In this document: piece after piece, positions 34,952 through 35,896 of the stretch
How the letters are laid out: the number at the start of each line of letters is the position of its first letter
Position numbering within the stretch: position 1 is the first letter of the stretch
Virus record (IMG/VR): IMGVR_UViG_2563366805_000010
Coordinates: 1-41,798 of that record
Source: a virus
Taxonomy: Duplodnaviria > Heunggongvirae > Uroviricota > Caudoviricetes
Reading direction: 5' to 3' (one strand)
Length of the DNA stretch: 41,798 bases
Translations under genes and position numbers: made by a program
Notes under the pieces: model-generated
What the model was told of the DNA's origin: nothing
What the model saw: only the letters and a program-made list of their open reading frames with translations
The model's database searches: none

Positions 34952-35302
34952 ATGGGTAAGGCCAAACTTCTAATTTGTGGTGTTCTTTTATCAGTTGTCG
35001 GCACGTCAGAGGCCTTAGCTGATACTCAGTGCGGGCCGTATCGCCTCACTGCGGGCAAAGAAGGACTAATGCTTATTAACGGGGTAAAACCTGAAACGCA
35101 AAAAATGTCTTTTCTCAAGTCTAAAGATGACTACCAAAACATGAAAGCAGAATGGATGGTTGCAACCGACCAACCCGGCCGCTGGGTTGGGCTTGAGTAC
35201 ATCAAGCGCAACGGCAAAGCCATTCTCAACGCACAGTGGTTGCAAGCCAGCATGGATGCGCTGCGTCAGTATGCAACATACGACTGCGTGAAGGTGAAGT
35301 AG
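34952..35302 (+). CDS. Secreted hypothetical protein (moron)
   Basis: 116 aa; signal peptide MGKAKLLICGVLLSVVGTSEALA with AxA-type cleavage site; two Cys in the mature part; inserted between baseplate genes. Confidence 0.5.
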   Translation: MGKAKLLICGVLLSVVGTSEALADTQCGPYRLTAGKEGLMLINGVKPETQKMSFLKSKDDYQNMKAEWMVATDQPGRWVGLEYIKRNGKAILNAQWLQASMDALRQYATYDCVKVK

Positions 35303-35306
35303 GTAT

Positions 35307-35334
35307 AAAGAAAAAGCGCCGGGTTGACCGGCGC
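35307..35334 (-). terminator. Rho-independent terminator on the minus strand
   Basis: GCGCCGG-GTTGA-CCGGCGC hairpin; a T-run follows only on the minus strand. Confidence 0.45.
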
Positions 35335-35340
35335 GCCAAG

Positions 35341-35442
35341 TTATTCCTCTTTGAAGCTGATGTTCTTGCACTGCTCCATTACTTCAATCAGTTCTTTTGA
35401 CGTCAGGTTTTCTACTTCGATTTTACCTTTCTCTGTGGTCAT
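35341..35442 (-). CDS. Very small ORF (33 aa)
   Basis: MTTEKGKIEVENLTSKELIEVMEQCKNISFKEE; ends just before the minus-strand terminator; no clear SD. Confidence 0.2.
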   Translation of the reverse strand: MTTEKGKIEVENLTSKELIEVMEQCKNISFKEE

Positions 35443-35692
35443 TGTTATTTTTTTTGGATGATCTGGTCTGTATCCATTTTCTTGCGATAGATGCAATGGC
35501 TATACAAGCTGGTGACGACGTGGCTACGATGATAGTTATGTCGACGAGCGTGCCAACCGCATTAATTGAGTCAGCAGTTCTGATTCGTCTGCGTATTTTA
35601 TAGTCGCTTTCAGGTATGTTATCCTGGATTATGGAGAGCAATTCTTTGCCTATTGCTGGAGTAAATTTTATGGTTGTTTCTGATTTTGGCAT
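35423..35692 (-). CDS. Hypothetical small membrane protein (89 aa)
   Basis: One hydrophobic helix (AVGTLVDITIIVATSSPACIAIASIA) and basic flanks; AT-rich; weak SD; contains an A8/T8 homopolymer. Confidence 0.3.
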   Translation of the reverse strand: MPKSETTIKFTPAIGKELLSIIQDNIPESDYKIRRRIRTADSINAVGTLVDITIIVATSSPACIAIASIARKWIQTRSSKKNNNDHRER

Positions 35693-35831
35693 AAAGGTAT
35701 CCGGCCCCTATCGTGAGAAGCTAAAAATTGCCTTGCGGCTTTTTCTTGGCAGCCTGTATCTCGCTACGAACCACGACGTTACCGTGGTTTTAAGCAAGAC
35801 CTACATTCAGGGCTGCAAAGAAGATAAATAG
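35616..35831 (+). CDS. Hypothetical small protein (71 aa), alternative coding call in the island
   Basis: Plus-strand ORF followed 40 nt later by a strong terminator; overlaps the minus-strand ORF 5' end; weak SD. Confidence 0.25.
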   Translation: MLSWIMESNSLPIAGVNFMVVSDFGIKVSGPYREKLKIALRLFLGSLYLATNHDVTVVLSKTYIQGCKEDK

Positions 35832-35873
35832 CACGGACAAATCAGCCCTCAAACCCTGACATTTGATCAGTAA

Positions 35874-35896
35874 CCCGCCGCCGAGCGGGTTTTTTT
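35874..35896 (+). terminator. Rho-independent terminator
   Basis: CCCGC-CGCCGA-GCGGG hairpin followed by seven T, immediately upstream of the baseplate gene SD. Confidence 0.6.

Follow-up and report, generated by a model that had tools for sequence, protein, structure and literature searches.

The stretch of DNA analyzed here (the window) is IMG/VR virus record IMGVR_UViG_2563366805_000010 at its full length of 41,798 nucleotides (nt), a complete prophage of ~41.8 kb that extends from an integrase gene (positions 1-1194) through an invertase gene (41250-41795). This work concerns the interval 34952-35896 in its baseplate gene block, between the genes for the baseplate hub and the spike. The interval is built in three layers: a conserved gene for a secreted barrel protein, a hypervariable cargo slot, and a conserved terminator preceding the spike gene. 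In the window, the slot is occupied by a two-gene cassette consisting of a broken, orphan gene of the EACC1 (effector-associated constant component) family on the minus strand and a conserved overlapping gene for a protein of 53 amino acids (aa), orf53, on the plus strand. The features, including the open reading frames (ORFs) from which these genes were recognized, are as follows.

34952..35302, plus strand: secreted-protein gene, 116 aa; signal peptide and predicted eight-stranded up-and-down beta-barrel with two invariant cysteines.
35316..35334, minus strand: intrinsic terminator of the EACC1-like gene (terminator scan; GCGCCGG-TCAAC-CCGGCGC followed by a T-run).
35341..35692, minus strand: orphan EACC1-family gene, 116 codons plus stop once repaired (PF19953 match, family profile, and ratio of nonsynonymous to synonymous substitution rates, dN/dS).
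35341-35442, minus strand: 33-aa ORF, the 3' half of the broken gene.
35423-35692, minus strand: 89-aa ORF, the 5' half of the broken gene.
35448..35455: frameshift site, a T8 run on the plus strand (A8 on the coding strand; alignment with relatives).
35597..35625, plus strand: predicted orf53 promoter inside the EACC1 coding region (pattern scan; TTTATA, 17 nt, TGtTATCCT).
35616-35831, plus strand: 71-aa ORF containing orf53 (ORF list).
35670..35831, plus strand: orf53, 53 aa (MVVSDFGIKVSGPYREKLKIALRLFLGSLYLATNHDVTVVLSKTYIQGCKEDK; conservation, codon-position bias, and dN/dS).
35825..35852, minus strand: predicted leftward cargo promoter, with a weak -35 element TTGAGG (plus-strand positions 35847-35852) and an extended -10 element TGcTATTTA (plus-strand positions 35825-35833).
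35855..35873: conserved 19-nt box CCTGACATTTGATCAGTAA, which contains GATC and adjoins the -35 element of the leftward promoter.
35872..35891, plus strand: family-conserved intrinsic terminator, right border of the slot, just upstream of the ribosome-binding site of the spike gene (terminator scan).

A preliminary description of this DNA had listed ORFs of 116, 89, 33, and 71 aa, an AT-rich stretch, a signal peptide, and two terminators, all of which were present (ORF list, GC profile, and terminator scan). The minus-strand ORFs of 89 and 33 aa, taken there for a pair of genes, turned out to be one gene of 116 residues split by an extra A. As evident from the alignment, the coding strand reads A8 in the window versus A7 in G3/10 and in Escherichia coli CX12 and Res13, and removal of one A restores the 116-residue protein. 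Every other nucleotide copy having the A-run carries A7, and about 40 other nucleotide copies are intact. The frameshift falls after ...WIQTRSSKK, just past the membrane helix, and the C-terminal 35 residues are lost. Because the extra base is the sole difference from E. coli CX12 and from IMG/VR locus L018 across 35300-35910, and the gene is the sole frameshifted one among the ~56 of 67 reference coding sequences from near-identical prophages with a match of at least 85% in the window, A8 appears to be either a mutation of very recent origin or a lone homopolymer error. A frameshift-ridden assembly was rejected as its cause, all other matching reference coding sequences mapping in a single frame. 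The Raoultella ornithinolytica protein P0021 (93 aa, ...SSKKSNNNNRKRKN) shows a second frameshift of independent origin at this poly-A tract. A conserved phase-variation device at the tract was also rejected: the tract is missing from diverged cassettes such as that of locus L087 and the ~40 other copies are intact, so that recurrent switching is unsupported, with Raoultella as the single independent case.

The repaired protein matched Pfam family PF19953 (EACC1) with 23.6 bits (E=5e-5), versus just 12.4 bits for the 89-aa fragment that the window encodes. The homologue from E. coli Res13 gave 29.1 bits and bears the name "effector-associated constant component EACC1" from the Prokaryotic Genome Annotation Pipeline (PGAP). 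When a profile of the phage family (14 members) was run against 1.84 billion representative proteins, 27 proteins were found, canonical EACC1s among them. One of these, P0132, itself gave 29.2 bits on PF19953, and the distant match P0137 is encoded directly upstream of a Peptidase_C14 protein (24.4 bits), which is the canonical two-gene system. The nearer matches P0118 and P0125 come from related phages, where their genes occupy the same slot between hub and spike. In searches of PADLOC-DB 2.0, the sole match of the minus-strand protein was to SngB, partial and weak (15 bits, E=0.0025).

In the published description of EACC1 (Kaur et al. 2020, PMC7159879), the single conserved transmembrane helix has small residues clustered at its center, an unusual trait. 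The phage proteins agree with this description. Among 15 family members, their membrane helix LVDITIIVATSSPACIAIASI hardly varies, and it aligns with the G/S-x-P-A helix of the canonical members. Directly before it, all members of the phage clade have T39 and D41, and the canonical members have an Asp in the same region of the alignment. The short N- and C-terminal regions can be aligned with canonical members as well and may form the alpha+beta extensions of the family. That the minus-strand gene belongs to the EACC1 family is thus well supported. According to a recent preprint (Evans et al. 2025, bioRxiv 10.1101/2025.11.14.688446), EACC1 is an auto-inhibited monomer that its partner caspase cuts at Asp49. 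The C-terminal fragment of the Ktedonobacter racemifer protein is toxic and permeabilizes liposomes, which marks it as a pore-forming death effector, and in the model of these authors the C-terminal part pairs with the N-domain and links protomers. The 35 residues lost in the window correspond to that part.

The phage copies thus resemble the EACC1-caspase system of Kaur et al. (2020) and Evans et al. (2025) in size (~116-120 aa), in the PF19953 match, in the single helix with its small-residue patch, in the alignable terminal regions, and in an Asp just before the helix, where the characterized member is cleaved. They differ from it in lacking an adjacent caspase or sensor gene, in lying antisense to the tail genes within a prophage baseplate operon, in being paired head-to-head with a 53-aa gene, and, in the window, in being frameshifted. 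No caspase gene was found beside the EACC1 copies in any phage context examined, the neighbors being the hub, the secreted-protein gene, orf53, and the spike. In loci L004, L007-L009, L091, and L094, the EACC1 gene lies in the hub-to-spike interval, on the strand opposite the tail genes and with no caspase, and no C14 peptidase is annotated in the near-identical CX12 and TOK-001 prophages. At 18318-18935, the window has an ORF with 100% identity to a TOK-001 protein that PGAP calls "putative metallopeptidase" and that is encoded just upstream of the terminase genes; the ORF also occurs in a relative with a different slot cargo and so has no specific link to EACC1.

Published EACC1-caspase systems are found mostly among actinobacteria, with sporadic occurrence among proteobacteria (Kaur et al. 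2020, PMC7159879). Homologues of the phage protein at 58-99% identity came exclusively from Enterobacterales, and the phage copies, as far as found, are confined to prophages of that order rather than to multicellular actinobacteria or cyanobacteria. The cassette was present in 11-12 of 5,426 complete E. coli genomes, and none of 50,697 deposited phage genomes had an EACC1-like gene. Among the papers available for search, those on the EACC1 protein family make no mention of prophage-borne or stand-alone copies.

The EACC1-like gene is under purifying selection (dN/dS 0.09-0.20). A minus-strand hairpin stands at the place of its terminator in the diverged cassettes L004, L007, L008, and L009 too, with different stems and compensatory variation. 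PGAP/RefSeq had left the intact 116-codon gene uncalled in G3/10 (locus L002, 4327-4674) and CX12 (locus L003, 4176-4523), calling just the 53-aa gene on the opposite strand (WP_016243572.1); in strain Res13 the reverse holds, with EACC1 annotated and the 53-aa gene not. E. coli M172-1, which matches window positions 35567-35910 only, has an apparent remnant of the cassette in which EACC1 is reduced to its first ~125 nt while orf53 and the box are retained.

The plus-strand partner had been described as a 71-aa ORF competing with the minus-strand pair. The real gene is the 53-aa version that starts at 35670, with GGAG 8 nt upstream of its start codon, and it is a conserved companion of EACC1. 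The two genes stand head-to-head with overlapping start codons, the first 23 nt of orf53 being the reverse complement of the first EACC1 codons; because the 5' ends overlap in this way, the two mRNAs would be complementary. orf53 was detected or seen by eye beside ~34 of 43 EACC1 copies, the rest not having been inspected. A 53-codon version with the same stop position was present in all four diverged loci first compared (L004 and L007-L009), a 54-codon version accompanies a 36%-identical EACC1 copy (L087), and 52-codon versions (MKTDLVITFGGS...) go with still more distant cassettes, so that the partner persists down to ~25-36% identity (L087, L091, L094, and L098). Outside the overlap, variable columns were distributed 16/5/35 over the three codon positions and dN/dS was 0.06-0.17. 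Thus, orf53 is a real gene under purifying selection, and the earlier view that genes lie on both strands holds for this interval.

The orf53 family comprises 14 clusters, none of them with a Pfam match or an informative name, and the gene, as the 71-aa ORF in the case of PADLOC, had no Pfam, PHROG, or PADLOC match. The idea that orf53 is a free-standing EACC1 N-terminal inhibitory domain was rejected (hhalign probability 0.15). AlphaFold2 returned a single long helix with a predicted local distance difference test score of 62, and at this score the fold is uninformative. A perfect hairpin at 35768-35788 (AACCACG...CGTGGTT) was tried as a conserved element and rejected; since it is absent in L087, where the encoded residues are kept, it is probably a by-product of coding. 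A search for a small RNA in the AT-rich part had been suggested, and a Rfam scan gave nothing near any gathering score.

The 19-nt box occurs once in the window, versus 0.01 expected by chance, and it is almost invariant in cassettes whose proteins are just 25-36% identical. A scan of IMG/VR yielded 46 occurrences, of which 36 lie beside the spike-proximal terminator. Its partner is mostly EACC1, and in some loci it is other minus-strand cargo that starts ~60 nt away. In L126 and L130, for example, the cargo ~60 nt from the box/promoter region is a minus-strand gene whose 187-aa product contains a Clp-protease domain (47 bits), so that a ClpP-like protease figures as alternative cargo in a slot that elsewhere holds a protease-activated effector. 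Proteins of unknown type occupy the same box-adjacent place elsewhere (150 aa in L101 and L119, ~160 aa in L111). Most of 20 diverged loci aligned, some without orf53 included, have a TGnTAnnn element whose distance from the box is fixed. From this predicted leftward promoter, the EACC1 mRNA would start near 35818 and carry a ~125-nt leader antisense to orf53. The candidate promoter for orf53 itself at 35597-35625 is accompanied by a -10-like element at the same place in L004, L007, L008, and L009. Assignment of the box as a LexA, CRP, or FNR site was rejected by eye because of wrong spacing (CTG-N9-CAG, TGA-N7-TCA), and since the window holds no second copy, the box is not the operator of the prophage repressor.

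The preliminary description had taken the whole interval, from the secreted-protein gene to the plus-strand terminator, as an insert, and had named presence of the same genes in all relatives as the finding that would speak against it. The comparison set consisted of 77 loci with both flanks (hub and spike), including the window and three E. coli loci, together with 80 IMG/VR relatives, most of them with a hub 94-99% identical. This revealed a divided picture: the secreted-protein gene proved a family component, present directly behind the hub in ~63 of 77 loci, and the EACC1-orf53 cassette an accessory one, present in 11 of 77 loci including the window and in 7 of the 80 IMG/VR relatives.

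In the window, the secreted-protein ORF begins 1 nt past the hub stop codon and encodes a Sec-type signal peptide (MGKAKLLICGVLLSVVGTSEALA|DT). The equivalent gene lies 1 nt from the hub or overlaps it in four annotated E. coli relatives, and the same distances (within 1 nt of the stop codon, or overlapping) define the ~63 loci just mentioned. In the remaining loci, either the barrel is fused behind a lipoprotein domain (10 loci) or a different lipoprotein stands at that place (4 loci). The fusion of the lipoprotein N-terminal domain with the barrel in the ten loci is a 299-aa protein with a lipobox, and ~570 nt extra were noted between hub and barrel domain in L014-L016, L034, L035, L048, L049, and L086. 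The protein belongs to phrog_3443, which here comprises 77 clusters from E. coli, Salmonella, Yersinia, Serratia, and others; the members share two invariant cysteines and are just 50-96% identical to the window copy, whereas the hubs of the IMG/VR relatives mostly reach 94-99%. It had no match in PADLOC-DB 2.0. Locus L084 represents the empty slot, with a hub-to-spike gap of just 430 nt and the secreted-protein gene as its sole content. The secreted-protein gene is therefore family-conserved and lies outside the variable insert.

The same applies to the right border. All 77 relatives, L084 included, have the plus-strand terminator hairpin with TTTTTTTATGGAGTTTTTATG after it ahead of the spike gene, whatever the cargo, and the stem variants are compensatory (AACCCGCC/GGCGGGTT, AAGCCGC/GCGGCTT, and AACCAGC/GCTGGTT). 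With the secreted-protein gene and this terminator both conserved, the variable insert proper narrows to ~35303-35871. The terminator lies inside the late operon (window positions 35872-35907; loci L001-L089), which implies read-through by antitermination, and in lysogens it may end transcripts of the secreted-protein gene.

Between these borders, the hub-to-spike gap ranges from 430 to 2471 nt. Besides EACC1 plus orf53, the slot holds a minus-strand DUF4236 membrane protein in 21 loci, a Phd/Doc toxin-antitoxin pair in 6 loci, and elsewhere secreted proteins, a pair of Arc-like and HEPN-like proteins, a Mu-F-like protein, and several unknowns. The DUF4236 protein, the commonest cargo, has 96 aa and a C-terminal membrane helix and is encoded on the minus strand (73.6 bits; for example L090, strain TOK-001, 36366-36656; 21 IMG/VR loci). 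Since close relatives differ in what lies between hub and spike, the idea of a moron-like accessory element inside the baseplate block is borne out, and the element does include a minus-strand membrane protein with its own terminator. The cassette shows presence and absence among near-identical relatives, its own terminator, and a deviating base composition (GC content 0.41-0.43 across 35300-35800 versus 0.52-0.60 in the flanks), as morons do. As to a promoter of its own, a consensus scan gave no match, and the box and the extended -10 element at fixed distance are common to other minus-strand cargo. Defense and accessory hotspots of temperate phages, such as those of the P2/P4 type and the hyper-variability hotspots (bioRxiv 10.1101/2024.10.15.618418), are comparable in combining a fixed position with many unrelated cargo sets that include toxin-antitoxin pairs and putative defense genes. 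The slot described here differs from them in its place within the baseplate block, between the secreted-protein gene and the spike, in its conserved terminator border, and in the 19-nt box and predicted leftward promoter shared by some of the cargo.

Because the EACC1 family consists of protease-activated pore-forming death effectors, abortive-infection or toxin biology is suggested rather than classical exclusion. We favor the reading that the cassette is a prophage defense or toxin cassette, switched off in the window copy, and give it a probability of roughly 0.6. Its mechanism might be as follows. The leftward promoter beside the box would drive EACC1 in lysogens, and the protein would be held auto-inhibited in the inner membrane. 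A protease acting in trans, from the host or from an invading phage, would cut after the invariant Asp41 (T-x-D|S); the resulting fragment of helix plus beta-hairpin would oligomerize to pores, and the infection would be aborted. During the prophage's own lytic growth, late tail transcription would read orf53 in the sense direction. The orf53 mRNA would be antisense to the EACC1 leader and start, orf53 could act as regulator or antidote, and EACC1 would stay silent. The A8 allele of the window would represent an OFF or pseudogene state.

Several points weigh against this reading. The Pfam score of the repaired protein lies exactly at the gathering cut-off of 23.6 bits, and more distant phage copies fall below it. 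Asp41 is only a putative counterpart of the published Asp49 of K. racemifer. No activating protease was identified, E. coli genomes not having been searched for one. The consensus scan upstream of EACC1 found no sigma-70 promoter, and because the extended -10 element shares positions with the orf53 stop codon, coding could account for some of its conservation. With no detectable relation to EACC1 domains and no confident fold, the role given to orf53 is a guess. Finally, since the gene is broken, nothing of this mechanism operates in the window unless slippage restores the frame.

A more far-reaching version is tentative, and we consider it doubtful rather than probable. It holds that temperate phages of enterobacteria carry a self-contained two-gene pore-toxin module in which a caspase-less EACC1 would be triggered by a protease of the invading phage or the host, or would work without any protease. 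The 53-aa head-to-head gene would be a new type of controller, with late transcription both silencing the toxin and producing the antidote, and the 19-nt box with its promoter would be a portable unit driving any minus-strand cargo, the ClpP-like protease of some relatives included.

Classical exclusion is unlikely, though it is the alternative that survives best. The EACC1-like protein would then work without proteolysis as an inner-membrane superinfection-exclusion factor that blocks entry of phage DNA in the manner of HK97 gp15; its EACC1 ancestry would be merely historical and orf53 a cofactor. The absence of a protease partner in every phage context examined fits such a role, as does a single-pass membrane protein encoded among tail genes beside a tape measure gene with a lytic transglycosylase domain. 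HK97 gp15 itself, in work attributed to Hendrix and to Cumby and Davidson, is reportedly a tail-region moron that encodes a membrane exclusion protein, and this precedent was counted in its favor. Features that belong to cleavage and pore formation have nevertheless been kept under selection (T39, D41, the small-residue helix, and the C-terminal beta-hairpin region), and the EACC1-like protein has no sequence relation to known exclusion proteins. Lambdoid morons such as that of HK97 gp15 are said to resemble the cassette as accessory units in a late tail operon, with deviating composition, their own terminator, patchy presence, and a membrane product. The cassette differs in being antisense to the operon, in consisting of two overlapping divergent genes, and in its protein family, and the signal-peptide gene next to it, apparently part of the moron, is family-conserved.

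A selfish addiction pair is quite improbable as a separate explanation. It would have EACC1 as toxin and orf53 as antitoxin, in the form of antisense RNA, protein, or both, and would serve stabilization of the prophage rather than defense. The head-to-head 5' overlap forces complementary mRNAs, EACC1 and orf53 co-occur almost always, a bona fide Phd/Doc pair uses the same slot in other relatives, and an inactivating frameshift in the toxin beside an intact partner is a common fate of toxin-antitoxin loci. This explanation overlaps largely with the defense or toxin cassette favored above, since addiction and abortive infection are not exclusive, and a family that is autoinhibited and needs cleavage would be atypical for such a toxin. 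Type I toxin-antitoxin loci reportedly share with the cassette a small membrane-active protein, toxin-like in kind, whose start region is complementary to a transcript from the opposite strand. Here, the partner encodes a protein and is itself under purifying selection, proteolysis is what normally controls the toxin family, and the antisense RNA is a predicted one.

An anti-defense decoy, in which the phage copy would mimic a host EACC1 and soak up the host caspase or poison pore assembly, is highly improbable. It would account for a phage-carried homologue of a defense effector that lacks a protease and conserves the putative cleavage Asp. Yet opposite orientation to the late operon combined with a separate terminator is the arrangement of an accessory gene expressed in lysogens, not of an early anti-defense gene, published EACC1-caspase systems are only sporadic in proteobacteria, and all of the close homologues found are phage-borne orphans themselves. 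The least probable reading is that of three or four independent moron genes (secreted protein, 33-aa peptide, 89-aa membrane protein, and competing 71-aa ORF) for exclusion or lysogenic conversion, which has the ORFs, the AT-rich composition, both terminators, and a cargo hotspot on its side and founders on the single gene behind the two minus-strand ORFs, on a secreted-protein gene and terminator conserved even around an empty slot, and on a plus-strand ORF that is a partner and no competitor.

The setting of the interval is a tail module of the E217/Pam3 type. Its genes stand in the order tape measure with SLT domain, Dit-like protein, plug (Pam3_gp18), hub, the interval 34952-35896, spike, sheath initiator, Baseplate_J, and wedge protein. 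The hub has a weak E217_GP41 match and belongs to phrog_196 (baseplate hub), and the spike combines an N-terminal spike domain with an Apex motif. The early half of the prophage is 99.7% identical to the E. coli TOK-001 prophage, and the late half ~97.5% identical to that of E. coli CX12. The tail-fiber end (~39300-41798) is unlike both. In TOK-001, the equivalent region contains tail-fiber-assembly genes in opposite orientations followed by a recombinase, and this arrangement suggests an invertible host-range segment; the recombinase of the window (41250-41795) is 100% conserved relative to TOK-001.

The comparison has consequences for annotation: an intact EACC1-like gene had gone uncalled by PGAP in G3/10 and CX12, and what looks like two small ORFs can turn out to be one gene interrupted at a homopolymer. 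With its clean borders, the slot offers a cargo hotspot in which new accessory genes could be sought. EACC1 was characterized in 2025 as a pore-forming effector that needs a neighboring caspase, and here a sizeable, old clade of orphans occupies one fixed slot in a prophage tail operon. Because the putative cleavage Asp persists in these orphan copies and a new small partner gene accompanies them, the question arises of what triggers and what restrains them without a protease. Knowing how orphan EACC1 is controlled would reveal whether a bacterial cell-death effector has been put to a new use by phages.

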